A program made the position numbers and the translations under genes. The notes below the pieces were generated by a model. It was not told the origin of the DNA, did not search any database, and saw only the letters and a list, made by a program, of their open reading frames with translations. Positions 9,062 through 56,094 of a stretch of 64,000 nt of DNA are shown one piece after another (the stretch's first letter is position 1; every line of letters begins with the position of its first letter). The DNA is taken from contig CAYSMF010000009.1 in assembly GCA_964432155.1 (NCBI GenBank), positions 4,106 through 68,105 on the forward strand, written 5' to 3'. This DNA comes from an uncultured Melioribacter sp. (GTDB lineage: Bacteria; Bacteroidota; Ignavibacteria; Kapaibacteriales; Kapaibacteriaceae).

Positions 9062-10420
9062 ATGAAATCTTCCATCCGGATTGCGTCAGGTCAGGGTTTT
9101 TGGGGCGACCTTCAGAGTGCTCCACTGCAACAGGTATCACGCGGTCAGATAGACTATCTCGTGATGGACTACCTGGCGGAAGTCACGATGTCGATTCTTC
9201 AGAAGCAGCGGATGCGGAATCCCGATCTCGGCTATGCACGCGACCTGGTCGATGTATGCGAGGAGATCCTGCCGTACCTCGTTGAGCGCGGCATCACGCT
9301 GATTACGAACGGCGGCGGCGTGAATCCACTCGCAGCTCGCGATCGCATCTTCGAAGTGGCGCGCAAGCAGGGTGTGAAGGGACTGAAGATTGGCGTCGTA
9401 ACTGGTGACGATATCCTGCCGCGGATCAGCGAGCTCGTCGACCAAGGACACGAGCTGCGCCATATGGAAACCAATGAGCCTATCGCAGCTGTAAAGGATC
9501 GTCTGCTCAGCGCAAACGTCTACACAGGCGCATGGCCAGTCGTTGAAGCACTGCATCAGGGTGCACAGATTATCATCACTGGACGAACAACGGATACAGG
9601 TCTCACCCTTGCTCCGATGATTCACGAGTTTGGATGGGGCGAACAAGACTGGGATTTGCTTGCTGCTGGTACGGTTGCCGGACACATCAACGAATGTGGT
9701 GCGCAGGCGAGCGGTGGAAACTTCCTGGGTGATTGGCGCTCGCTGAAGAACATGCATGATGTGGGCTTCCCGATCATTGAAGCATACCCGGATGGTTCGT
9801 TCATCGTAACAAAGCACGAGGGTACAGGCGGTGCGGTGACGCGCGAGACGGTGAGTGAGCAGCTGATGTACGAGATCGGTGATCCAACGATGTACATCAC
9901 GCCAGACTGTATTGCCGATTTCTCATCGATCCACCTTGAAGATCTTGGCAACGACCGCGTTCGTGTGTTCGGCATTACCGGAAAGCCATACACACCGTCG
10001 TACAAGGTAAGTGCGAGCTATCTCGACGGATTTGTAGCGTTTGGATCGCTCACATATTCAGCCCCAGATGCCTACGAAAAGGCACAAGCTGCGGATGCGA
10101 TCCTTCGTAAGCGACTCGAGTTGCTCGGGCTTTCGTTCGACGAGATCCGCACGGAGTACGTTGGCTTGAACGCATGTCATGGACCGATCGCAAAGAACAT
10201 CGAGCCGAACGAGGTGATGATGCGTATTGGTGTTCGTGGTCATGACAAGGCTGCAATCGAACGCTTCAGCAAGGAGCTTGCACCGTTGATTCTTACCGGA
10301 CCGCCGAGCGTTACGGGCTTTTCGGGTGGTCGTCCGAAGCCAAGTGATGTGGTCGCGTATTTCCCTGCACTCCTTGACAAACGTGTAGTCGAGATGCACG
10401 TGCAGGTTGATGAGATCTAA
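9062..10420 (+). CDS. DUF1446 family protein (acyclic-terpene-utilisation AtuA-like)
   Basis: ATG start. 452 aa with N-terminal IASGQGFWGD..IDYLVMDYLAEVTMSIL and ITNGGGVNP / GRTTDTGL motifs characteristic of the DUF1446/AtuA family. Confidence 0.7.
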   Translation: MKSSIRIASGQGFWGDLQSAPLQQVSRGQIDYLVMDYLAEVTMSILQKQRMRNPDLGYARDLVDVCEEILPYLVERGITLITNGGGVNPLAARDRIFEVARKQGVKGLKIGVVTGDDILPRISELVDQGHELRHMETNEPIAAVKDRLLSANVYTGAWPVVEALHQGAQIIITGRTTDTGLTLAPMIHEFGWGEQDWDLLAAGTVAGHINECGAQASGGNFLGDWRSLKNMHDVGFPIIEAYPDGSFIVTKHEGTGGAVTRETVSEQLMYEIGDPTMYITPDCIADFSSIHLEDLGNDRVRVFGITGKPYTPSYKVSASYLDGFVAFGSLTYSAPDAYEKAQAADAILRKRLELLGLSFDEIRTEYVGLNACHGPIAKNIEPNEVMMRIGVRGHDKAAIERFSKELAPLILTGPPSVTGFSGGRPKPSDVVAYFPALLDKRVVEMHVQVDEI

Positions 10421-22977: not shown

Positions 22978-23427
22978 TTAACGCTTCGGCGTTACATCCT
23001 GAATCCGCGTGATCCACCACATGTTTTGTGCGTTGATCGTCGTGAACTGCATCATGCGGATGTAGTCGACGGTGATGCGAACATTGTGTGCTGTTGCACT
23101 TACGGTATCGATTGATGTTTCTGTGATTGCCTTGCCGCCCATCACGGTTTTCCATCGAACCAGGTCATCTGCTAACTCAAACTTCTCGATCGCCAAGAGC
23201 GGTCCGCCCGAGCTATTGCGCAACAGTTCCGTTGCTGCCGTTGTATTGCCGCTATCGAGTTCTGCTTTGAACAAGTGCACAACTCCAGGTGCTGAGCGCT
23301 GACTGCGTTCGATCTGGCGTTGGCGACGTTGCGCGCCCCCTATGATGAACAACTCGCAGCCGACGGCTACCAGTGAAAACAAGCTCACGAGTCCTATTGC
23401 CAAGCGGTGTGTCATCGAGTAAGCCAT
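22978..23427 (-). CDS. Hypothetical lipoprotein
   Basis: ATG start. Lipoprotein signal MTHRLAIGLVSLFSLVAVGC (lipobox VAVGC). 149 aa, no family recognised. Confidence 0.45.
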   Translation of the reverse strand: MAYSMTHRLAIGLVSLFSLVAVGCELFIIGGAQRRQRQIERSQRSAPGVVHLFKAELDSGNTTAATELLRNSSGGPLLAIEKFELADDLVRWKTVMGGKAITETSIDTVSATAHNVRITVDYIRMMQFTTINAQNMWWITRIQDVTPKR

Positions 23428-24269
23428 GTGCTTGCGTGCGAAATCATGTCGACCAACCCTGGTGTGATTCGATCTACTGGGTGTGTCATCCCAAACGTGT
23501 GTGTCGTATTCGAGATAACGGTAAGCTCTGCATCACATTGTGAAGCCGTGCGAAGAGCAACAATCTCGCTGAGGGGTACTGTAAGGTCGGCTTCTGCATG
23601 GATAAAATGCAACGCAGGACCACATGCGCGTGCAGCCGACACGAGGGAGAGACGGTCGGCATTCTGCTCGAGGTCGTGGACGTACGACATATTCATGCGA
23701 AGTTGCTGACCTGTCCGCTCGTTGGTAAACGTCATCCCTCCATCACGTTCCCATTGTTCTCGCTGCCGTGGCGTCCAGCGTAGCCATGTACCTACAGAGT
23801 TGAGAACAACGGTGCGAACTTGGCGGTCGGGGTTCGCTGCGAGAAGTTCACTCGTAACAATCTGTGCAATACCACCACCACGGGAGTGGCCGATGAGGAA
23901 CAGTCTCCCGTCCCAACGATCGCGCACGGCGGCAAACTCCTCGCTCGTCGAGACGGCAGTAAGCATGTCGTGTACGTCGTCGACTTCGCGTGAAATGGTA
24001 TTTCGCGCAAAGGCGTCGGTATCCTGGACCATCCACGAGGTACCGTTCATGCCATTGAGCGAGTAGTCCATGCGCATCGACATGATGCCGAGTTGCGCAG
24101 CGCTCTGTGCGATCCACGGAAGGAAGCTGTAGTTGCGAAACCCCTTGAACCCGTGAAGGATCAGCAGGAGGGGAACGCGAGCCTCGTCGGACGTAGCAGG
24201 CGTAACCGTTGCGTGCAGGATGTCGTTGTGTCGGTTTGCAATCTGGTGCGTGGTTTCGGCAGTGATCAT
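23412..24269 (-). CDS. Alpha/beta-hydrolase fold protein
   Basis: ATG start. Nucleophile elbow GHSRGG; PLLLILHGFKG region. 285 aa. Confidence 0.7.
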   Translation of the reverse strand: MITAETTHQIANRHNDILHATVTPATSDEARVPLLLILHGFKGFRNYSFLPWIAQSAAQLGIMSMRMDYSLNGMNGTSWMVQDTDAFARNTISREVDDVHDMLTAVSTSEEFAAVRDRWDGRLFLIGHSRGGGIAQIVTSELLAANPDRQVRTVVLNSVGTWLRWTPRQREQWERDGGMTFTNERTGQQLRMNMSYVHDLEQNADRLSLVSAARACGPALHFIHAEADLTVPLSEIVALRTASQCDAELTVISNTTHTFGMTHPVDRITPGLVDMISHASTWLTR

Positions 24270-37296: not shown

Positions 37297-38129
37297 TGCG
37301 ATTGCATGCTGCTCTCTGCGGTGTTGTTGCGTGTGCGCTGTCGCACGTTGCAGTCAACGCCCAGGACCTCACGATTACACCCCTACAGCAGTGTAACTCT
37401 GCCAAGGCCGAGTATGCCCCCTCGGTTGACGTCTTGACGTCGTCGATCATCTTCACATCCGAGGTCTCGGGTGTTGCCGCTGTCTATCGTGCGCGTCTCG
37501 ATGAATCGACAGGCATTGAGCGCGTGGCAGGTACCTTTAACAACCCCCGGCATCATCGCGGTTGCGTGAGTCTGGACTCAACAGGAACCGGTATTGGCGT
37601 TGTGTATGCCGCATATGACCAGCAGATGTATGCTGGTCTGGCAACCGTAACGCGCTATGGAAACGAGATGAATCTCGGGACCATGTTGGACGTTGTGAAC
37701 GGTCCCATGTACGTGTCGCAGCCCGCGCTTTCGCCCGATGGATCTCGTCTTGCGTTTGTCACAACGCGAGAAGGGGGCCGAGGTGGACTCGATCTGTGGA
37801 TGTGTGAGCGACGTGATGATCTCTCGTGGTCGGAACCCATGAACATGGGCCGCAACGTGAATTCGGACGGCGATGAGATCTCGCCCTGGTTCGCATCGGA
37901 AGATACGCTCGTCTTTGCCTCAAATGGTTTTGGCGGAAAGGGCGGTTTCGACATCATGATGTCAGTTCTCCGCGACGGCGTGTGGCTCGAGCCCTTGCCC
38001 GTGGAGGACATTAACTCTGAATACGACGACAGTGACTGCATTGTTCTGCGCGACGGAACAATGGTGTTCGCAAGTACAAGGCCCGGTGGGACGGGCGGAC
38101 TTGATCTCTGGATTGCTCGACGGAAATAG
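37296..38129 (+). CDS. Periplasmic TolB-like protein with PD40 (WD40-like beta-propeller) repeats
   Basis: ATG overlaps the queE stop (taatg). SP MRLHAALCGVVACALSHVAVNA. Three PD40 repeats (SPDGSRLAFVTTREGGRGGLDLW; FASNGFGGKGGFDI; FASTRPGGTGGLDLW). Confidence 0.7.
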   Translation: MRLHAALCGVVACALSHVAVNAQDLTITPLQQCNSAKAEYAPSVDVLTSSIIFTSEVSGVAAVYRARLDESTGIERVAGTFNNPRHHRGCVSLDSTGTGIGVVYAAYDQQMYAGLATVTRYGNEMNLGTMLDVVNGPMYVSQPALSPDGSRLAFVTTREGGRGGLDLWMCERRDDLSWSEPMNMGRNVNSDGDEISPWFASEDTLVFASNGFGGKGGFDIMMSVLRDGVWLEPLPVEDINSEYDDSDCIVLRDGTMVFASTRPGGTGGLDLWIARRK

Positions 38130-38140
38130 GTTGTAAACGA

Positions 38141-38168
38141 AAAAAGGCCCGCAACTGCGGGCCTTTTT
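38141..38168. terminator. Bidirectional Rho-independent terminator between convergent genes
   Basis: aaaaaGGCCCGCaactGCGGGCCttttt : GC-rich 7-bp stem flanked by A-run and T-run. Confidence 0.65.
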
Positions 38169-38189
38169 CATTGTCGTCATGATGTCGGT

Positions 38190-38951
38190 TTACTTGATGC
38201 TGTAACGCACAAGTGTTGTTTCCACGCCGTCGATCGGGAGCGGCGGAATACCCATGATGTTTACCACTTGCGCCGGTTGTGTGACCTTGATCCAGCCAAT
38301 ACCATTAACAAACCAGTACGTGCGAACGAGTTGGATTGGAACCGGAACCGCTTGTGGACCAAACATCAAATACAGTGTGATGTTCATCGTGATTTCAACC
38401 TTCGAGGCTGCTGTGGCAGCACCATTGATGCTGACAGTCTCTGTGCCGAGCTTCTTACCCGTGAAGCTCAGGCCAGCCGAGCCTGTGTATGAGCCTGAAG
38501 GACCAGCGTCAATCGTGAACTGTGGGATCGAATCCTTGAGTGCTGTCCATGACGAAGCATTTTCGTCGAACAGATTTACCCACTTGTTGCCAAGGTCGAC
38601 TGGTGCGCCGAGCACGTCAAACGAAAGTGGAAGAAGTGTCGAAACGACCGTTCCTTGCTGTGCATCGTACATCGTGTCGACGGCCATACCGCCAACGTAC
38701 ATGATCGACTCAACAGCTGAGCGGCCTTCAACAGTCTTTGTACCAGTAACAACGACGCTATCTGGAAGGATGTCGACTGTGTCGGTTGCGCCTGACGCAT
38801 CCGTGTCGAACGAGCGATTGGCGTGGATGAAGTACGAACCAGGTGTCGAGATAACGTACTTGCCAGGCTCAGTCGGTGTTGTTGTGTCGCTCGAGCAGCC
38901 GGCAAGACCGAGTCCGATTGCGGCGACAGCGATGATTGCGAAACGCTTCAT
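38190..38951 (-). CDS. Hypothetical lipoprotein
   Basis: ATG at 38951 (MKRFAIIAVAAIGLGLAGCSS, lipobox LAGC). The track ORF extends into the tRNA-Ser gene, so the internal Met is the real start. 253 aa, beta-rich. Confidence 0.5.
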   Translation of the reverse strand: MKRFAIIAVAAIGLGLAGCSSDTTTPTEPGKYVISTPGSYFIHANRSFDTDASGATDTVDILPDSVVVTGTKTVEGRSAVESIMYVGGMAVDTMYDAQQGTVVSTLLPLSFDVLGAPVDLGNKWVNLFDENASSWTALKDSIPQFTIDAGPSGSYTGSAGLSFTGKKLGTETVSINGAATAASKVEITMNITLYLMFGPQAVPVPIQLVRTYWFVNGIGWIKVTQPAQVVNIMGIPPLPIDGVETTLVRYSIK

Positions 38952-38997
38952 GCTTGTGTTCTCCTGCGGATAAACCGCGTTTGCGTGGGATTGAGAG

Positions 38998-39079
38998 CGG
39001 AGGGCGAGGGACTCGAACCCCCACAACCTTTCGGTCGGCTGTTTTCAAGACAGCTGCAATACCATTATGCGAGCCCTCC
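38998..39079 (-). tRNA. tRNA-Ser (anticodon UGA)
   Basis: Manual fold of the reverse complement: acceptor GGAGGGC/GCCCTCC, discriminator G, 3-bp D stem GCA/TGC, anticodon stem GCTGT/ACAGC with loop CTTGAAA (anticodon TGA), long class-II variable arm (CGACC-GAAA-GGTTG), T loop TTCGAGT. CCA not encoded. Confidence 0.75.
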
Positions 39080-39128
39080 GTGGGCGTTGGACGACAAATC
39101 TACGGAAGAGATTTGATCTGCAATGCAC

Positions 39129-40184
39129 TCATTCTCTGACGATTTGCTGATCATCGTAACATGCGCGTCGGCGAAAGCGTTCCATATCCAGCTGAAGAAA
39201 GTCTGCTACGGTCCCTGCAAACAACTGCTGTTTTATAGCATCAGATAGGTCTGGCATCTCGTCAATAAACTTCCCGTGCTCAAGGTCGCCCAGTGGGAAT
39301 GGATAGTCGGTGCCGTACGCGATTTTCTCCGGCCCCATCAATGCGATCAGGTAGCGCAGGGCATCGGCATTGTGCGTAATGGAATCGACCCAGAACTTCG
39401 AGACGTATGTTGAAGGATCGGCGACGCCATTGACATTGCATAGGTCTGGGCGCGCGTGGTATCCATGAGAAATGCGGCCAACCGTGAACGGGAACGAACC
39501 ACCCGCGTGAGAAAACATCACGCGAAGCTGTGGGAACGCATCAAATACACCACCGAAGATCATCGACGTCATCGAGAGCGTTGTCTCAGCTGGCATGCCA
39601 ACGAGCCACTGTTGGAAGTAGCGCGATGTGCGTTCGGCGCCCATCATCTCCCAAGGGTGGACAAAGATGGCTGCGCCCATGTCTTGAGCAGCTTCCCAGA
39701 ACGGCCACAGCGATCGGTCGTCGAGATTCATTCCATTGATATTCGTTCCGATTTCCACGCCGGGCATGCCGAGTTCACGAACGCAACGCTCCATCTCGCG
39801 AATCGCCCGGTCGACATCCTGCATTGGCAAGGTGCCAAGTCCGATAAAGCGCTGGGGATGATCCTTGACCACCCCAGCGAGGTGGTCGTTCAGAAACCGA
39901 CACCAATCCTCGGTGTGCTCTGGCTTTGCCCAGTAGGAGAACAACACCGGAACTGTACACAGCACCATCGCGTCGATACCGTGGGCATCCATGTCGCGCA
40001 GAATGGCAAGTGGGTTCCAGCAGTTCTCATCGATGTCGCGGAAGAACACACCGTCGTCGCGCATCATCCGCGCCTTGCCTGGTGTGAAGTGATCCAGCTC
40101 GATGAACCCGCCATAACCGTAGCGGTCCTTCAACGAGGGCCAGCGCTCCGGAAGAATGTGGGCATGACAATCAATCTTGATCAT
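39129..40184 (-). CDS. 2-amino-3-carboxymuconate-6-semialdehyde decarboxylase (ACMSD; amidohydrolase-2 family)
   Basis: ATG 40184 overlaps the upstream gene's stop (ATGA). Near-colinear identity blocks with animal ACMSD: MIKIDCHAHILP, RYGYGGF, ENCWNP, TVPVLFSYWAKPE, GLGTLPMQ, EMERCVRELGMPGVEIGT, FVHPWEM, WLVGMPAETT, FSHAGGSFPFTVGRISHG..RPDLC, GTDYPFPLGDLEHGKFIE. Confidence 0.88.
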   Translation of the reverse strand: MIKIDCHAHILPERWPSLKDRYGYGGFIELDHFTPGKARMMRDDGVFFRDIDENCWNPLAILRDMDAHGIDAMVLCTVPVLFSYWAKPEHTEDWCRFLNDHLAGVVKDHPQRFIGLGTLPMQDVDRAIREMERCVRELGMPGVEIGTNINGMNLDDRSLWPFWEAAQDMGAAIFVHPWEMMGAERTSRYFQQWLVGMPAETTLSMTSMIFGGVFDAFPQLRVMFSHAGGSFPFTVGRISHGYHARPDLCNVNGVADPSTYVSKFWVDSITHNADALRYLIALMGPEKIAYGTDYPFPLGDLEHGKFIDEMPDLSDAIKQQLFAGTVADFLQLDMERFRRRACYDDQQIVRE

Positions 40185-40711
40185 GCCGAGGCCTTTGCTG
40201 GCGCTTCCATGACCGTTCCGCACTTCGAACACGTGCAGTGCTCCTTGTTGCCATAGAAGCGCTCAAAGATTGGAGGGAGCTGACTGACGATGTTGGTCAA
40301 CGGCAGGAACTCCTCGTACAGCTTGTTGCCGCAGGATTCGCAGAACCACATAAAGGCATCGAGTTCATCGGGCAGGTGGCGCTTGCGCTCAATCACCAGA
40401 CCCACACTGTCGGCTGGACGCTGCGGGGAATGGGGCGTGCGAGGAGGGAGGAGGAAGATCTCTCCCTGCTTGATATGGATATCGCGCGGCTGTCCATCGT
40501 CGATAATCTTCACGACGATGTCGCCCTCGAGCTGATAGAAGAACTCCTCACCCTCATTATAGTGGTAGTCCTTGCGGTTGTTAGGTCCACCCACGACCAT
40601 GATGATGAATTCCGTGTTCTCATACACTTGGGCATTGCCGACAGGGGGCTTGAGCAGGTGGCGGTGTTCATCGATCCAGGCATGAAGATTGAAGGCGCTT
40701 TGGATAGGCAT
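40181..40711 (-). CDS. 3-hydroxyanthranilate 3,4-dioxygenase (HAAO; cupin) with C-terminal rubredoxin-like Cys4 site
   Basis: ATG start. Strong identity to eukaryotic/bacterial HAAO: PPVGNAQV..GGPNNRKDYHYNEGEEFFYQLEGD..RDIHIKQGEIFLLPPRTPHSPQRPADSVGLVIERKR. C-terminal CESCGN..CTCSKCG (CxxC..CxxC). Confidence 0.88.
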   Translation of the reverse strand: MPIQSAFNLHAWIDEHRHLLKPPVGNAQVYENTEFIIMVVGGPNNRKDYHYNEGEEFFYQLEGDIVVKIIDDGQPRDIHIKQGEIFLLPPRTPHSPQRPADSVGLVIERKRHLPDELDAFMWFCESCGNKLYEEFLPLTNIVSQLPPIFERFYGNKEHCTCSKCGTVMEAPAKASA

Positions 40712-40784
40712 GCGAAGCTCACTCAGACGTTAGGGTGGTACATTCGTAGTCACAAAAGTACATGAACCCCTGAAAGCAACACGC

Positions 40785-41576
40785 ATGGACCTCTCACTTG
40801 TAGGCCGCCGAGCGCTCGTTTGTGGCGCATCGCAAGGAATCGGCAAAGCCATCGCACTCGAACTCGCAGCCAATGGCGCATCGGTCACGGTTCTTGCTCG
40901 CACCCAGTCTGCCCTCGATGCAGTGGTCGCCGCTCTTCCCGCAACTGCTGATCAGCACCACTCCTCGATCGCTGTCGATATGACGGACGAAGTAGCGCTG
41001 TTAACAGCTGTGCATAACACTGTGGATAGTGGTGGCGCTTTCCACATTCTTGTGAATAACACTGCTGGTCCAGCTGGTAGTCCACTTGTGGATAGTCCTG
41101 TGGAAAGCCTGCGTAATGCCTTTGAACAACATATTCTTACGGCACATCAGCTGACTAAGATTCTTGTGCCTGGAATGACGGCATGTGGATACGGCCGCAT
41201 CATTAACATCGTATCCACATCTGTGAAGATCCCCATCGACGGTCTCGGTGTAAGCAACACCATCCGCGGAGCTATGGCCAGCTGGTCGAAGACCATGGCC
41301 AACGAATTGGCACCACGTGGGATCACCGTGAACAACGTTCTACCAGGTGCCACAGAGACTGATCGCCTGCAAGCCATCATCGAGCGGAACGCCCGTGTCA
41401 AGGGGCAATCAGAGGATGCCGTTCGGGCCCACATGGTGGCAGAGATTCCTGTCGGACGCTTCGCCCAACCGTCGGAAATCGCCAATGCCGTTGGCTTTTT
41501 GGCCTCGCCATCGGCCTCGTACATCACCGGCACCAGTATCATCGTCGACGGTGGTCGCACCCGCTCACTGACCTAA
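40785..41576 (+). CDS. Short-chain dehydrogenase/reductase (SDR) family oxidoreductase
   Basis: ATG start. Rossmann motif ALVCGASQGIGKAIA, NNTAG, catalytic Y-x3-K region. 263 aa. Divergent from HAAO with a 73-bp spacer. Confidence 0.75.
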   Translation: MDLSLVGRRALVCGASQGIGKAIALELAANGASVTVLARTQSALDAVVAALPATADQHHSSIAVDMTDEVALLTAVHNTVDSGGAFHILVNNTAGPAGSPLVDSPVESLRNAFEQHILTAHQLTKILVPGMTACGYGRIINIVSTSVKIPIDGLGVSNTIRGAMASWSKTMANELAPRGITVNNVLPGATETDRLQAIIERNARVKGQSEDAVRAHMVAEIPVGRFAQPSEIANAVGFLASPSASYITGTSIIVDGGRTRSLT

Positions 41577-41816
41577 CCCCAAGTACCTTTCCACTTCATG
41601 TGGATAACCTGTCAACAAACCCATGCATTTTCCATGGGCCAGGTATTGCTATTTGCTATCCCAACGACTACTTTTGTGGAGGTCGTAACTCCTTATCTAA
41701 TCAGGGATATCGAGGGTTTCCGAGGGACAAAACACCCGGTAAAACGGCCAAAGCATAGGGAAGTTAACCACATGTGTGAATAACCTCGAGGGGTTTTCCA
41801 CATTCGGAGCAGCAAC

Positions 41817-42608
41817 GTGGCGCGAAAGAATCGGGAAGCATCGGTGCAGCGAGGCGGCCGTAGGTCGTCTGGGCTTGTCATCACCATGCTAGCGCTAGTG
41901 TTCCTCGGGTTTATGGCGACGCAATGGTACGAGCGCCAACACATCGACACAGTAGAGATCGAGGGCGCGTCTGGCTTGAGCAAGGCTTCAGTACGCAGTA
42001 TCGTCGACACACTCGCAGCAAAGCCACACCGCGGTATCGTCCTTGCCGATGTACGTCTTGCACTTGAGTCGCTGCCGTACGTGCGCAGCGCATCGGTGTA
42101 CTTCAGCGGCGTGCGCGAACTCACAGTCGAGATTGAAGAGCGCATTCCTGTTGCGCATGTTGTGCACGCAGATGGTTCATTGCGCTACGTTGACGCCTCA
42201 GGCTCAGTGTTGCCGCATGTGACAGAGCGTACATCGCACAACGTTCCGGTATTGCAATCAACGGACGGATCGAGCCTGTCAGCATCCGACGTTCAGCGCG
42301 TGGTAGCGTTGCTCGTCACGGGATCGCGCGTGCTTGATCCAGTGTTGTACCAATCGATTTCCGAAGTACGGTTCAACCGCCGTCAGGGAACAGTCGAAGT
42401 GGTGACCGACGATACACGTTGGCGTCTTGGTGAAATGGATGCGGAGCGTGCTCGTGGTGCCTTTGCCGACATGAATGTGTTCTGGAAGGAGACATCGCAG
42501 CGCATTAACATGGCGACGATTTCTGAAGTTGATCTGCGGTGGAAGAATCAGATTGTTCTGCGCTATCACCAGACCGAGCGCGTTGTTGATGGGGGAGCGA
42601 CAGTATGA
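41817..42608 (+). CDS. ftsQ: Cell division protein FtsQ (POTRA domain)
   Basis: GTG start with GGAG 8 nt upstream. Cytoplasmic tail, TM (LVITMLALVFLGFMATQW), POTRA (IDTVEIEGASGLSKASVRSIV). Immediately followed by ftsA and ftsZ. Confidence 0.75.
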   Translation: MARKNREASVQRGGRRSSGLVITMLALVFLGFMATQWYERQHIDTVEIEGASGLSKASVRSIVDTLAAKPHRGIVLADVRLALESLPYVRSASVYFSGVRELTVEIEERIPVAHVVHADGSLRYVDASGSVLPHVTERTSHNVPVLQSTDGSSLSASDVQRVVALLVTGSRVLDPVLYQSISEVRFNRRQGTVEVVTDDTRWRLGEMDAERARGAFADMNVFWKETSQRINMATISEVDLRWKNQIVLRYHQTERVVDGGATV

Positions 42609-43900
42609 GCACTCCTGAAATCCACGTCGGACTCGACATCGGCACAACGAAGGTGTGTGCTGTTGTCACATCGTTCGATCCAACAAAGAATCGCGTCGAG
42701 ATCCTTGGCACTGGCACTGCAGAGTGCGACGGACTCAAGCGTGGTGTTGTTACGAACATCACAAAGACAGCAGAAGCGATTCGCGGTGCGATTGAGCGCG
42801 CTGAACAGCAAAGTGGATACGAGATTCGTCGTGTCGTCATCGGCGTGAGTGGTGAGCACATCGCAACATTCACAACGCGTGGCATTGTGACGACGCGTAC
42901 ATCGGAGATTTCAGCAGAAGATGTTCGACGTCTGCACGAAGAGCTCCGACAGGTGCACGTTACAGCAGATCGTCGAATCCTGCATGTGATTCCGCAAGAC
43001 TATATCATCGACGGACAGGATGGTATTTCTGATCCGCTCGGAATGAGCGGTCGTCGCTTAGAGGCAAACGCGCTCGTTATTACCGCGTCTGCATCAGCGG
43101 TGGAAAATGTCTATAAATGTGCTGAACGTGCTGGACTACATGTCGATGCCGTTGTTCTCCAGTCGATTGCGAGTGCAATGGCTGTGCTTGATGAAGCTGA
43201 GCGCGATGTAGGTGTTGCGCTTGTCGACATCGGTGGAGGAACGACGGATATCGCGATGTACAAGGACAATGTTCTGCGTGCTGTGAGTGTGATCGGCTTG
43301 GCCGGTCAGCGCGTGACCGATGACATCGTCACGGTTCTGGGTATTCGCAGCAATGATGCCGAAGAGATCAAGGTTGAGCATGGTCATGCGATCAGTGAGA
43401 GCATCCTGCGTGATGAGCACTTCCAAGTTCCTGGGGTCGGCGGTCGCCGTCCAACGGAACTGTCGAAGTCGATTCTCTGTCAGGTGATCGAGCCACGCAT
43501 GGAAGAGATCTTCGAGTTCGTGATGCAACGCATTCACGACTCAGGTCTTTCACACCAGCTTGCCGCAGGGATTGTGATCACGGGAGGTGGAGCGGATCTA
43601 CGTGGTTGTGACATGCTCGCACAACGTACCTTCCGTCTTCCTGTGAACAAGGGTTTGCCACGTGGCTTCAGTCACGACGGACTCGCTCGTGAGGTAACAA
43701 CACCAGCGCACGCAACAGCCGTGGGCTTGGCGATGTACAGCATCGAGCATGAAGATGAATTTCAACAGGTGTTCAGCGACCAACCGGTTGCTGCCGCACT
43801 TCCTCAACAACCGACAGCAGCTACCGTTCAGCAGCCTGAAGAAGCACCGCGCAAGCGTGGGCTCCTTCAGGGTGTTAAGGAATGGTTCGAAAACTTGTAA
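42605..43900 (+). CDS. ftsA: Cell division protein FtsA
   Basis: ATG overlaps the ftsQ stop. Actin-like ATPase N-terminus IHVGLDIGTTKVCAVV. 431 aa. Confidence 0.92.
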   Translation: MSTPEIHVGLDIGTTKVCAVVTSFDPTKNRVEILGTGTAECDGLKRGVVTNITKTAEAIRGAIERAEQQSGYEIRRVVIGVSGEHIATFTTRGIVTTRTSEISAEDVRRLHEELRQVHVTADRRILHVIPQDYIIDGQDGISDPLGMSGRRLEANALVITASASAVENVYKCAERAGLHVDAVVLQSIASAMAVLDEAERDVGVALVDIGGGTTDIAMYKDNVLRAVSVIGLAGQRVTDDIVTVLGIRSNDAEEIKVEHGHAISESILRDEHFQVPGVGGRRPTELSKSILCQVIEPRMEEIFEFVMQRIHDSGLSHQLAAGIVITGGGADLRGCDMLAQRTFRLPVNKGLPRGFSHDGLAREVTTPAHATAVGLAMYSIEHEDEFQQVFSDQPVAAALPQQPTAATVQQPEEAPRKRGLLQGVKEWFENL

Positions 43901-43941
43901 CTCATGCTTTTACACACCATGACCACATTCCGGGGGGAATA

Positions 43942-45270
43942 ATGGCCATCGAGTTGGATACAACTGGATTTACGACTGACGCACGCATTCGTGTTGTCGG
44001 CGTAGGCGGCGGCGGCGGGAACGCAGTGCGAACGATGATCGCGCGCGGGCTCGACGGCGTGGAGTTCATTGCAGCGAACACCGACCGCCAGGCATTGTTG
44101 AATAACCCAGCTGGCATCAAGCTTCAGTTGGGTAAGGACGTCACACGTGGACTCGGCGCAGGGGCTGATCCGACGCGCGGACGTGCCGCTGTCGAGGAGA
44201 GCATCGACGAAGTGTACGATGCGCTCCAGGGTAGCGACATGATCTTTGTGACTGCAGGCATGGGCGGCGGAACGGGAACCGGAGCAGCACCGGTGATCGC
44301 TCGCGTTGGCCGTGAAATCGGTGCGCTTGTCGTCGGTATCGTCACAAAGCCATTCGCATACGAATCAAAGCGTCGCGCGAATGTTGCCGAGAACGGTATC
44401 AAGGATTTGCGCGAACATGTCGATGCATTGATCGTGATCCCGAATCAACGCATCCTGACCGTTGTCGATAAGAACGTAACGTTCGCAAACGCACTCGCGA
44501 TGGTCGATACGGTGCTCTACAATGCAACGAAGGGTATCGCCGACATCATCTCTGGTGTTGGTTATGTGAACGTCGACTTTGCTGATGTGCGCACCGTCAT
44601 GAGCGGCATGGGCGATGCACTGATGGGTATCGGCACAGCATCCGGTGAACATCGTGCGATCGAAGCTGCACAGAATGCGCTGAACTCCCCGATCCTCGAA
44701 GGCATGTCGATCTACGGCGCGCAAGGTTTGCTTGTGAACATCACGGGCGGACAGAGCATGACGATGTTCGAAGTGAGCGAGGCCGTGTCGGCAATTGAGA
44801 AGGCAGCTGGCGACGAAGTCAATCTGATTCACGGCGTTGTCGTCGACGAATCGATGGACGATGAAATGTCGATCACTGTTGTCGCTACAGGATTCCGCCG
44901 TCAAGAAGAGAAGAAGGTTGTTCCGGTATCGGCTCCTCTTGCATCAACGCCGGTGATCGAGATTGTACGTCCTACGCCTGAGCCTGAAGCTGAACTCACG
45001 ATGAGCACGCCAGCTCCAGCGCCAATCGCGCAGCCAAGTTCTGATGTTGATGTACACGATGTCAACGTTCCAGCATACCTGCGCCGTCAGCGCGATCAAG
45101 AACGTTCACAAGCAGGCATGCCACGTCAAGAGCCGCCAGTTACTGGTAGCGTTCCGATCGTGCCACCATCGTCAGCCTCAGATGCAGATATGAGCTTTGG
45201 TCAGCCTGTCCGTAAGGCTGCTGCAGCAGGCGGCAATCAGCCAGCCTTCTTGCGGAAGATCATGGACTAA
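43942..45270 (+). CDS. ftsZ: Cell division GTPase FtsZ
   Basis: ATG 43942 with GGGGGGAAT RBS (the track start at 43882 lies inside ftsA). Tubulin signature GGGTGTG and VVGVGGGGGNAV. Pro/Ser-rich C-terminal linker and conserved C-terminal peptide. Confidence 0.95.
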   Translation: MAIELDTTGFTTDARIRVVGVGGGGGNAVRTMIARGLDGVEFIAANTDRQALLNNPAGIKLQLGKDVTRGLGAGADPTRGRAAVEESIDEVYDALQGSDMIFVTAGMGGGTGTGAAPVIARVGREIGALVVGIVTKPFAYESKRRANVAENGIKDLREHVDALIVIPNQRILTVVDKNVTFANALAMVDTVLYNATKGIADIISGVGYVNVDFADVRTVMSGMGDALMGIGTASGEHRAIEAAQNALNSPILEGMSIYGAQGLLVNITGGQSMTMFEVSEAVSAIEKAAGDEVNLIHGVVVDESMDDEMSITVVATGFRRQEEKKVVPVSAPLASTPVIEIVRPTPEPEAELTMSTPAPAPIAQPSSDVDVHDVNVPAYLRRQRDQERSQAGMPRQEPPVTGSVPIVPPSSASDADMSFGQPVRKAAAAGGNQPAFLRKIMD

Positions 45271-55158: not shown

Positions 55159-56094
55159 CTAGCGCTTGAGGATGTCTTCTGCGGCATCAAGGGCCGAAAT
55201 GATCGCCCCCTCGACACGTGAACCGCCAAATGCATCGCCAATGACGATGAGCGGGGGCTGGTCGACAGCACGCAGGAATGTAGACTCGGTGGTCGTGATT
55301 GGGCGACTAAACTTCCAGGCGTGTACGTCGATGTCGGTGACTCCTTCGAGTGCGTCGCCGAACACACAGGCTGCGAGGTGCTTGGCAACATCACTTCGAT
55401 CGGTATCCCACATACGCTCGGAGAATTCGGGAGTCGCATGAATGGTATAGGCAGGAGATTCCGAGATGCCCTTGTCGTAGTTATCGCCAATGTAGGCGAC
55501 GTCCGGGTGCGTTATTGCCCGCACATCATGTGGAGATGTTCTTCGTACAAGTGATGCAATGCAGCGTTCGTACGTGATCGATGCTAGGACTGTATGCACG
55601 TGTTCATTCAGCACCACGTTGCCGTTGCTGAGTAGTTGTACTGTCTGAGGCACAGGTGCACTGGAGACAATAGCATTGGCGGTGAAGTTGCTGCCATCAG
55701 CGCACCGAACGGTCCATGACGTGCCGTCGTGTTCGAGTGATGTCACTTCCATGCTTGTTCGGACATCCGAGCCTGCCGCTACTGCTGCAACGATGCTCGA
55801 CATGCCATACACACCGCAATAGCGTGGCAGACCATCACTGCTTGCACGGAACCACTCACGTACGACGCCGTCGGCGACAAGCTGTGCAAACATCTTCTGG
55901 ACGCGTTCATCGCGCACAGTAATGAACTGTGCGCCGTGATCGTACCGCACGCCCTCGCGTCGACGTGTCGACATCCGTCCGCCGACTCCACGCCCCTTAT
56001 CAAGCACGAGCGTATGCTTGCCGGCTGCAGTGAGAAGTTGTGCGAGTGTAACGCCGGAAATGCCGGCTCCAATGATGATGATGTCGAAGTGCAA
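55159..56094 (-). CDS. NAD(P)/FAD-dependent oxidoreductase (renalase/amine-oxidase-like)
   Basis: TTG start. Dinucleotide-binding N-terminus MHFDIIIIGAGISGVTLAQLL. 311 aa. Confidence 0.7.
   Translation of the reverse strand: MHFDIIIIGAGISGVTLAQLLTAAGKHTLVLDKGRGVGGRMSTRRREGVRYDHGAQFITVRDERVQKMFAQLVADGVVREWFRASSDGLPRYCGVYGMSSIVAAVAAGSDVRTSMEVTSLEHDGTSWTVRCADGSNFTANAIVSSAPVPQTVQLLSNGNVVLNEHVHTVLASITYERCIASLVRRTSPHDVRAITHPDVAYIGDNYDKGISESPAYTIHATPEFSERMWDTDRSDVAKHLAACVFGDALEGVTDIDVHAWKFSRPITTTESTFLRAVDQPPLIVIGDAFGGSRVEGAIISALDAAEDILKR

Follow-up and report, generated by a model that had tools for sequence, protein, structure and literature searches.

An atypical short-chain dehydrogenase/reductase associated with kynurenine-pathway genes in a Kapaibacteria-like member of the Bacteroidota

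We examined a 64,000-nucleotide stretch of DNA (the window) from an uncultured Melioribacter sp. (GenBank assembly GCA_964432155.1, contig CAYSMF010000009.1, positions 4,106 to 68,105), in which three neighboring genes encode 3-hydroxyanthranilate 3,4-dioxygenase (HAAO), 2-amino-3-carboxymuconate semialdehyde (ACMS) decarboxylase (ACMSD), and an atypical short-chain dehydrogenase/reductase (SDR). We consider it probable (roughly 65%) that this trio makes up the core of a catabolic branch for 3-hydroxyanthranilate (3-HAA) within a dispersed kynurenine pathway and that it forms a vertically inherited chromosomal module of Kapaibacteria-like Bacteroidota. The association of the SDR with the pathway was observed in many clusters beyond this lineage.

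HAAO (40181..40711, minus strand, 176 amino acids, EC 1.13.11.6) is of the HAAO/NbaC type, with a single cupin domain and a C-terminal rubredoxin-like Cys4 site. It matched Pfam PF06052 (3-HAO; E = 2e-60, 203 bits) and scored above the equivalog cut-offs of two NCBIfam models, NF009763 (263 bits, cut-off 220) and TIGR03037 (nbaC; 257 bits, cut-off 146). In an alignment to the characterized reference, the HAO of Cupriavidus metallidurans (50.3% identity), the iron ligands H50, E56, and H94 and the substrate-binding residues R46, R98, and E108 are all kept; in the numbering of the C. metallidurans enzyme (1yfu), we take the iron ligands to be H51, E57, and H95 and the substrate residues to be R47, R99, and E110. 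The CxxC...CxxC site that the initial reading of this DNA (made by a model from the letters alone, and called here the sequence-only reading) had noticed at the C terminus is present: C124, C127, C161, and C164 align with C125, C128, C162, and C165 of the C. metallidurans enzyme.

ACMSD (39129..40184, minus strand, EC 4.1.1.45) belongs to the amidohydrolase_2 superfamily. Its open reading frame (ORF) ends at 39129, and we took the ATG at 40184, rather than an upstream GTG, as the true start because the homologues uniformly open with MxKIDxHAH; this gives a protein of 351 amino acids. It matched Pfam PF04909 (Amidohydro_2; E = 2e-43, 149 bits), and its top 13 matches in the PDB were all ACMSDs, with the human enzyme first; the next family, 5-carboxyvanillate decarboxylase, followed at 108 bits. 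None of the NCBIfam models matched ACMSD at all, and its homologues are named aminocarboxymuconate-semialdehyde decarboxylase in IMG and plain "amidohydrolase" in RefSeq-style annotation. The zinc ligands H7, H9, H176, and D293 (human H6, H8, H174, and D291), the catalytic H226 (human H224), and the substrate-binding residues R49, R237, and W193 (human R47, R235, and W191) are all kept, and these residues are invariant in 11 homologues from Bacteroidota and related phyla.

The two genes share 4 bases. On the minus strand, the HAAO stop codon TGA (40181-40183) lies over the ACMSD start codon ATG (40182-40184), which gives the ATGA overlap at 40181..40184 that can be read in GCATGATC and that indicates translational coupling of ACMSD to HAAO. 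At 21 of 23 loci in syntenic relatives, the two genes overlap by up to 4 bases or lie up to 6 bases apart. The sequence-only reading had described an overlapping pair of minus-strand genes for HAAO and ACMSD, and this description held: Pfam, NCBIfam, and PDB matches agree with both enzyme assignments, the metal ligands of both proteins are intact in the reference alignments, and the coupled pair stands in conserved synteny. In itself this pair is ordinary; the enzymes, their coupling, and the metabolic branch point are textbook material, and homologues are already annotated in this way. A few relatives vary at the junction. In one (L049), the space from the HAAO stop to the ACMSD start (about 9968-9995) is filled by three tandem copies of GGTCATAAC. 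In two metagenome-assembled genomes (MAGs) labeled Chlorobiota (L057:8895-11014 and L058:9033-11026), a glyoxalase/VOC-like protein of 126-128 amino acids is encoded between HAAO and ACMSD (the glyoxalase/VOC Pfam match was seen for L057).

The SDR gene (40785..41576, plus strand; PF13561 and PF00106) is divergent from HAAO. Only two enzymes had been counted in the sequence-only reading, with the SDR as a mere neighbor, and this view did not survive a comparison with other genomes. In an ACMSD-anchored scan of species genomes, SDR orthologues with 47-84% identity were found beside HAAO, ACMSD, or 2-aminomuconate-semialdehyde dehydrogenase (AMSDH) in three arrangements. Arrangement (a), SDR<>HAAO-ACMSD, is that of the window. 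In arrangement (b), found at L060-L062, one of which is named Candidatus Kapaibacterium, the order is AMSDH<-SDR<>HAAO->ACMSD...KYNU->KMO, and the SDR is 48-53% identical to that of the window. In arrangement (c), all genes are co-directional, in the order SDR-AMSDH-RidA-HAAO-ACMSD-cyclase (kynurenine formamidase, KFA)-KYNU-KMO, and the SDR is 47-49% identical (L081, L088, and L089; L082 is truncated after ACMSD). The MAGs with arrangement (c) are labeled Gammaproteobacteria; SDR orthologues also lie inside complete kynurenine clusters of other Bacteroidota.

We also searched in the reverse direction, anchored on the SDR: metagenome contigs were scanned with an alignment of SDRs (A2), the best 80 matches were kept, and every ORF up to 7 kb away from the SDR was assigned to a family by unbiased clustering. 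The commonest neighbors at these 80 loci were an AMSDH-like aldehyde dehydrogenase (42 loci), an ACMSD-like amidohydrolase (32), HAAO (25), KMO (18), RidA (18), and KYNU (17), followed by an O-methyltransferase (16), KFA (6), and TDO (4-5). AMSDH was directly adjacent to the SDR in 27 of the 80. At least one kynurenine-pathway gene lay within 6 kb of the SDR on 57 of the 80 contigs, or on 26 of the 36 in which both flanks were at least 3 kb. Over the 160 related loci, nadC was found in none, and neither were 4-oxalocrotonate tautomerase, 4-oxalocrotonate decarboxylase, the hydratase, the aldolase, or acetaldehyde dehydrogenase. Given both scans, we rejected the idea that the SDR is a syntenic bystander, and we are fairly confident that it belongs to the kynurenine pathway module.

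Several features of these clusters deserve mention in their own right. At L081:6656-15540, L088:6786-15640, L089, and L098, a co-directional kynurenine operon, plus one further gene, stands directly after apaH; the operon of L098 lacks the SDR. A conserved protein of 350-359 amino acids closes the operons (L088:14588-15640, L081:14470-15540, L089:14516-15586, and L098:14498-15577); it matches no Pfam family, and nothing meaningful in the PDB. Because TDO is the only pathway step without a recognizable gene in the operons that this protein closes, its role is worth asking about. The O-methyltransferase is a class I enzyme (PF01596, E = 3e-52, at L127:4078-4719), found at this and 15 other SDR-anchored loci. 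Finally, on many contigs of the SDR-anchored scan, the gene after HAAO encodes a third type of ACMSD-like amidohydrolase, which is very divergent (L135:1997-3079 and also L118, L119, L123, L126, L127, L130, L137, L140, L148, L150, and L157, with several of these contigs being marine). It shares 25-29% identity with the ACMSD of the window, its best PDB match is human ACMSD at 86 bits, and we presume that it forms a lineage of its own with the same function.

The SDR has a Rossmann fold and adh_short domains, and no NCBIfam model scored above its cut-off. It departs from the classical N-S-Y-K tetrad: in place of the canonical YxxxK it has S-N-T-I-R, preceded by S-T-S-V-K. The Ser and Arg of the former are invariant in the 11-sequence alignment A2, and the latter is likewise invariant in the subfamily. 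The nearest solved structures (PDB 5va8, 5vps, and 5idx; 153-173 bits) are uncharacterized structural-genomics SDRs. Two of them (5va8 and 5vps, for which the alignments were shown) resemble the window SDR in having S-N-x-x-R in place of Tyr/Lys, after S-S-x-V-K; the three carry no assigned function and hence define none for the window SDR. By the general rules for SDRs, an Arg without an acidic residue after the second beta-strand points to NADP(H). The window SDR has an invariant Arg right after this strand and no acidic residue there, which suggests that it binds NADP(H). We define a kynurenine-cluster-associated SDR subfamily by an identity of roughly 47% or more to the SDR of the window, the motifs GLGVSNTxR and W[AS]KT, and a location next to AMSDH, HAAO, or ACMSD; the window SDR shares all of these features. 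Plasmid-borne relatives of the SDR are at most 44.6% identical and lie in unrelated gene neighborhoods.

The 73-bp region between HAAO and the SDR (40712..40784) contains two back-to-back boxes that resemble TAnnTTTG, the -7 consensus of Bacteroidetes. The box for HAAO-ACMSD, TACTTTTG (40753-40760, minus strand), starts 49 nucleotides before the HAAO ATG, and the box for the SDR, TACATTCG, is at 40739-40746 on the plus strand. Of 26 distinct intergenic regions from relatives, 22 contain the one box and 22 the other, versus 4-5% of shuffled sequences, and the box on the HAAO side usually starts 42-49 nucleotides ahead of the ATG in these relatives. This fits two divergent promoters, one of which would drive HAAO and then ACMSD on the minus strand and the other the SDR on the plus strand, so that the three genes might be co-regulated. 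Scans for sigma-70 promoters and terminators gave nothing above the shuffled background, and an Rfam scan of 38000-42000 found the tRNA described below and no regulatory RNA.

How would these enzymes work together? HAAO, with Fe(II) and O2, would open the ring of 3-HAA to yield ACMS, and ACMSD, a zinc enzyme, would convert ACMS to 2-aminomuconate semialdehyde before most of it cyclizes spontaneously to quinolinate. AMSDH, whose gene is adjacent in arrangements (b) and (c) and is not in the window, would then form 2-aminomuconate, which may be deaminated to 2-oxohex-3-enedioate by RidA or spontaneously. The SDR, probably with NADP(H), would act after AMSDH and take 2-aminomuconate or its deaminated product towards 2-oxoadipate. 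It would thereby hold the role that the meta-cleavage lower pathway has in nba-type operons. We put forward this assignment (a reductase of 2-aminomuconate or 2-oxohex-3-enedioate, from a family not described before) as a tentative one, which is more doubtful than the SDR's membership in the module. The make-up of the clusters in relatives, with AMSDH, RidA, and the SDR but never nadC, points to catabolism, and we infer from it a flux in that direction. Clusters that have neither nadC nor 4-oxalocrotonate genes fit catabolism by a route in which some other enzyme is required after 2-aminomuconate.

Such a reduction has been discussed for eukaryotes. In animals, a reduction after 2-aminomuconate has long been postulated, and a 2026 preprint assigns the metazoan reduction of 2-aminomuconate to ASPDH and calls the later steps unknown (bioRxiv 10.64898/2026.06.05.730449); the enzyme that we propose for this part of the pathway is an SDR and not an ASPDH-type reductase. 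According to a study in fungi, 2-oxo-3-hexenedioate may be reduced to 2-oxoadipate, and an SDR of unassigned role is among the genes that are syntenic with 3-HAA clusters of Aspergillus (PMC7842363). In the open-access literature, we found no description of a bacterial 2-aminomuconate or oxalocrotonate reductase and no paper on Kapabacteria and kynurenine.

Among known bacterial systems, close counterparts to the window's pair are operons of the nbaC/nbaD type (the nba operon of P. fluorescens KU-7 and Burkholderia-type tryptophan catabolism), in which HAAO is likewise followed directly by ACMSD. For comparison, we used a plasmid of Bacillus sp. F19 (L014) and a Mycetohabitans megaplasmid (L015). 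These operons add a RidA-type deaminase, AMSDH, 4-oxalocrotonate tautomerase and decarboxylase, a hydratase, an aldolase, and acetaldehyde dehydrogenase, and they lack an SDR of the subfamily defined here; their ACMSDs are 34-39% identical to that of the window. None of the downstream genes was found in the window by tblastn with proteins from L014, L015, and L088, and of this set only AMSDH and RidA occur in some of the 160 related loci. The sequence-only reading had named such a catabolic operon, or a loss of the metal ligands, as findings that would speak against it; we found no 4-oxalocrotonate decarboxylase, hydratase, or aldolase of this kind, and the ligands are intact.

What of the other genes of the pathway? 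With queries from related clusters, tblastn gave no match in the window for TDO, KFA, KMO, KYNU, AMSDH, or RidA/AMD at E <= 0.01, and E. coli nadA, nadB, and nadC gave none at E <= 1e-3. Pfam scans of the unclear ORFs in the window found nothing relevant to the pathway. Two candidates were considered and rejected. The ORF at 55159-56094 (minus strand), a candidate KMO, encodes a 311-amino-acid flavoprotein with amine-oxidase/NAD_binding_8 domains that is renalase-like and not KMO; an alpha/beta hydrolase at 23412-24269 has weak similarity to Abhydrolase_3 and nothing that points to kynurenine formamidase. The pair had indeed been reported to lack the other pathway genes, and this is correct for the window, but the absence is less notable than it had seemed. 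Among 75 evaluable related species, 42 have ACMSD without HAAO within 2.5 kb and without any other pathway gene in the fetched flank, and 33 have HAAO beside ACMSD. Scattered pathway genes are the norm in this phylum and ACMSD subfamily, so a 64-kb stretch without them reveals little about the genome. In some relatives more of the pathway is nearby: at L008, an overlapping HAAO-ACMSD pair lies 7 kb from KYNU-KMO, and at L060-L062 and L081-L089, KYNU and KMO stand beside the pair (with KFA as well at L081-L089). TDO, KFA, KMO, KYNU, and AMSDH are presumed to be encoded elsewhere in the genome.

Several observations weigh against a catabolic module with the SDR as its third member. The reaction of the SDR was assigned from gene neighborhood alone, and because AMSDH and RidA are not adjacent to it in the window's clade, its proposed substrate depends on an enzyme that is not seen here. 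Kynurenine genes are absent from 10 of the 36 long SDR-anchored loci, and some full kynurenine clusters (L098 and L096) lack the SDR. TDO, KMO, KYNU, and AMSDH were not demonstrated for this genome or its close relatives, as covered by the window and by a search with KYNU. In that search, the KYNU of Kapaibacterium L060 gave, among the matches listed, none on long ACMSD-carrying contigs; these matches were saturated at about 61% identity by sequences 59-68% identical, which were apparently mostly from Bacteroidia/Chitinophagaceae, judging by the few with names. Lastly, relative to the window's genes HAAO has the highest GC content at third codon positions (GC3 of 0.718, z = 2.9), and its codon usage deviates most among the 43 genes that were scored, although it is also the shortest of them, its overall GC is typical, and the deviation may be noise or a bias related to expression.

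A different reading of the pair is that it serves de novo NAD synthesis that is gated by ACMSD, as in animals: HAAO would make ACMS, which would go on to quinolinate for NadC, while ACMSD would trim the excess. HAAO is the last enzymatic step to quinolinate, ACMSD is of the animal-type subfamily, and nadA and nadB were not found in the window. We nevertheless regard this reading as unlikely. HAAO appears to be translationally coupled to an enzyme that destroys the precursor of quinolinate, AMSDH, RidA, and the SDR cluster with the pair in relatives and nadC never does, and a lack of nadA and nadB in 64 kb gives no information on the genome beyond it. A share of the ACMS may still cyclize to quinolinate for NAD, which is compatible with catabolism.

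Kurnasov and colleagues reportedly described, in 2003, a bacterial kynurenine pathway to quinolinate and NAD in Bacteroidetes and other groups. That pathway (Ternes and Schoenknecht 2014, PMC4217691) resembles the window in its phylum-level setting and in having HAAO as the fifth enzyme, and the window's relatives have KYNU and KMO beside the same pair. It differs in that its five enzymes end at HAAO and it needs nadC, whereas the HAAO of the window is coupled to a diverting ACMSD.

A less probable alternative is that the pair produces picolinate, for use as a metal chelator, for example. Without AMSDH, 2-aminomuconate semialdehyde would cyclize to picolinic acid; the semialdehyde decays non-enzymatically to picolinate (bioRxiv 10.64898/2026.06.05.730449), and AMSDH was found neither in the window nor, among members of the syntenic clade, up to 10 kb from the pair. 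The SDR next to the pair suggests a pathway that continues past the semialdehyde, as in other lineages AMSDH is the gene that it most often adjoins (adjacent in 27 of 80 loci and within 7 kb in 42). The general scattering of pathway genes in the phylum and the lack of export or chelator-related genes conserved near the pair also speak against picolinate as the product, and we give this alternative little weight.

SDR-type dehydrogenases make 3-HAA from 2,3-dihydro-3-hydroxyanthranilate (DHHA) in secondary metabolism. With an SDR beside HAAO, 3-HAA or an analogue might come from a source other than tryptophan: from 2-nitrobenzoate, from the hydroxylation of anthranilate, or from chorismate by way of DHHA, with the SDR as the DHHA dehydrogenase. 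This is very improbable. Around the 80 SDRs there were no isochorismatase, ADIC synthase, or nitroreductase families, and instead KYNU, KMO, KFA, and TDO; moreover, the closest gene partner of the SDR is AMSDH, which acts downstream of HAAO. We rejected the specific role as DHHA dehydrogenase in a route from chorismate to 3-HAA because no PhzE/PhzD-like families were among the SDR's neighbors.

The catabolic reading also includes vertical inheritance, and the surroundings of the trio bear on this. As had been described from the sequence, a tRNA-Ser(TGA) gene (38997..39079, minus strand; found by ARAGORN and Rfam) lies 49 bp downstream of ACMSD, and ftsQ, ftsA, and ftsZ (41817-45270) lie beyond the divergent SDR. 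The gene order recG, queE, PD40 protein, (variable insert), lipoprotein, tRNA-Ser, ACMSD, HAAO, <>SDR, ftsQ, ftsA, ftsZ, MFS, arginase, dapD is kept in relatives. We found the synteny of the HAAO-ACMSD block in metagenome contigs L001-L007 and L013, whose ACMSDs are 71-79% identical to that of the window, and in at least 18 GTDB species representatives; overall, the syntenic relatives have ACMSDs with 66-91% identity. The tRNA-Ser(TGA) directly follows ACMSD in all of the syntenic relatives (among them L001, L004, L007, and L013) and also at L009. The closest homologues of ACMSD are from MAGs named Candidatus Kapabacteria/Kapaibacterium, Ignavibacteria, or Bacteroidota, and the best GTDB species representative is a freshwater MAG (L019, CAJAIA01) at 91% identity. 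In genome contigs of GTDB species representatives, this type of ACMSD turned up in at least 575 stretches. The HAAO-ACMSD locus is thus stable, chromosomal, and vertically inherited, and the tRNA-Ser is a conserved neighbor rather than the boundary of an island.

The sequence-only reading had hinted at a tRNA-linked island and had called for a comparison of base composition with the flanks. Neither gave reason to see an island: the GC content of the pair (0.555) is close to the mean of the window's genes (0.553), with only the GC3 of HAAO raised, and within the window there is no integrase, transposase, or repeat on either side of the pair. Although the pair adjoins a tRNA-Ser, ACMSD is 50% identical to the human enzyme, and HAAO has its raised GC3, a recently acquired island with eukaryote-derived genes has next to no chance of being correct and is ruled out by the identical gene order (including the tRNA) in relatives, the flat base composition, the breadth of this ACMSD type among GTDB representatives, a bacterial-type HAAO, and the grouping of human ACMSD with a different bacterial clade.

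Some further observations concern this neighborhood. In two Kapaibacteria-like loci (L009:9211-12054 and L011:9529-12282), ACMSD is beside surE and HAAO is not adjacent; the order surE-ACMSD-tRNA-Ser-lipoprotein at L009 shows that ACMSD and tRNA-Ser are also neighbors where HAAO is not. The lipoprotein past the tRNA-Ser matches nothing in Pfam, and every syntenic relative keeps it downstream of the tRNA. As listed, with a TTG start, its ORF (38190-39026) overlaps the tRNA-Ser; the likely true start is the ATG at 38951 (MKRFAIIAVAAIGLGLAGCSS, with a lipoprotein signal). Transposase fragments (Transposase_mut and rve_3) between ftsZ and MFS at L001:3884-4517 and L003:2299-2932 have no counterpart in the window and are the sole sign of mobile DNA near the conserved block. 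Elsewhere in the window, a PorE/CHU_0125-like protein fits an origin in Bacteroidota.

The two enzymes differ in how animal-like they are. Near-colinear identity to animal ACMSD had been claimed for the window's ACMSD, and this is correct: it is 50.4% identical to human ACMSD (2wm1; 411 bits) and colinear with it over residues 2-337, versus 211 bits for an nbaD-type ACMSD from P. fluorescens (2hbv). Plasmid-borne ACMSDs from Proteobacteria, Actinobacteria, and Bacillus are at most 39% identical. By its sequence, then, the window ACMSD is a member of the animal-type subfamily, and it shares all zinc ligands and substrate-binding residues with the human enzyme (PDB 2wm1/4ih3). The claim of very high similarity to animal enzymes failed for HAAO: among solved structures it matched a bacterial one best (C. 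metallidurans 1yfu, 181 bits). The two-domain human HAAO scored 156 bits and aligned over residues 8-160 only. At 176 amino acids, versus roughly 286 for animal HAAO, the protein is of the bacterial single-domain type, with the rubredoxin-like Cys4 site that bacterial and yeast HAAOs have, and is not especially animal-like; we know of no such site in animal HAAO. HAAO and ACMSD are physically linked in eukaryotes as well: ascomycete clusters have them head-to-head, and in Sciaridae they lie within a cluster (bioRxiv 10.64898/2026.06.05.730449), whereas in the window they form a bacterial operon with a 4-base overlap.

Phylogenies had been suggested as a way to detect transfer between domains; in our ACMSD tree, the human enzyme groups with a bacterial clade other than that of the window. 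Across 86 bacterial sequences of the ACMSD subfamily, identity to human ACMSD is 48-63%, and it is 48-54% for the window's clade. We built a neighbor-joining tree with an nbaD-type sequence as the root. In it, the sister group of human ACMSD consists of eight sequences with 60-63% identity to the human enzyme (L081, L082, L088, L089, L098, L096, L084, and L144), so by this analysis the animal enzyme has closer bacterial relatives than the window's clade. The tree contains a single eukaryote (human), which leaves the direction of any transfer undecided. For five core kynurenine enzymes, published analyses gave no support for transfer from eukaryotes to bacteria (PMC4217691). The nearest bacterial relatives of human ACMSD are in complete operons of eight to nine genes in uncultured bacteria labeled Gammaproteobacteria, and these operons bear on the origin of the eukaryotic pathway.

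Overall, the traits that had been flagged as unusual (an animal-like ACMSD, a neighboring tRNA, and missing pathway genes) are ordinary for a broad subfamily of bacterial ACMSDs, in which the genes of the pathway usually lie apart. The most interesting result is the SDR, a testable candidate that accompanies, across phyla, kynurenine clusters that never carry the meta-cleavage lower pathway. If our assignment is correct, then the SDR would be a counterpart, though not a homologue, of the ASPDH-type 2-aminomuconate reductase of metazoa, and Bacteroidota and some Gammaproteobacteria would gain an animal-like route for tryptophan carbon, via 2-oxoadipate and glutaryl-CoA, that replaces the meta-cleavage lower pathway.

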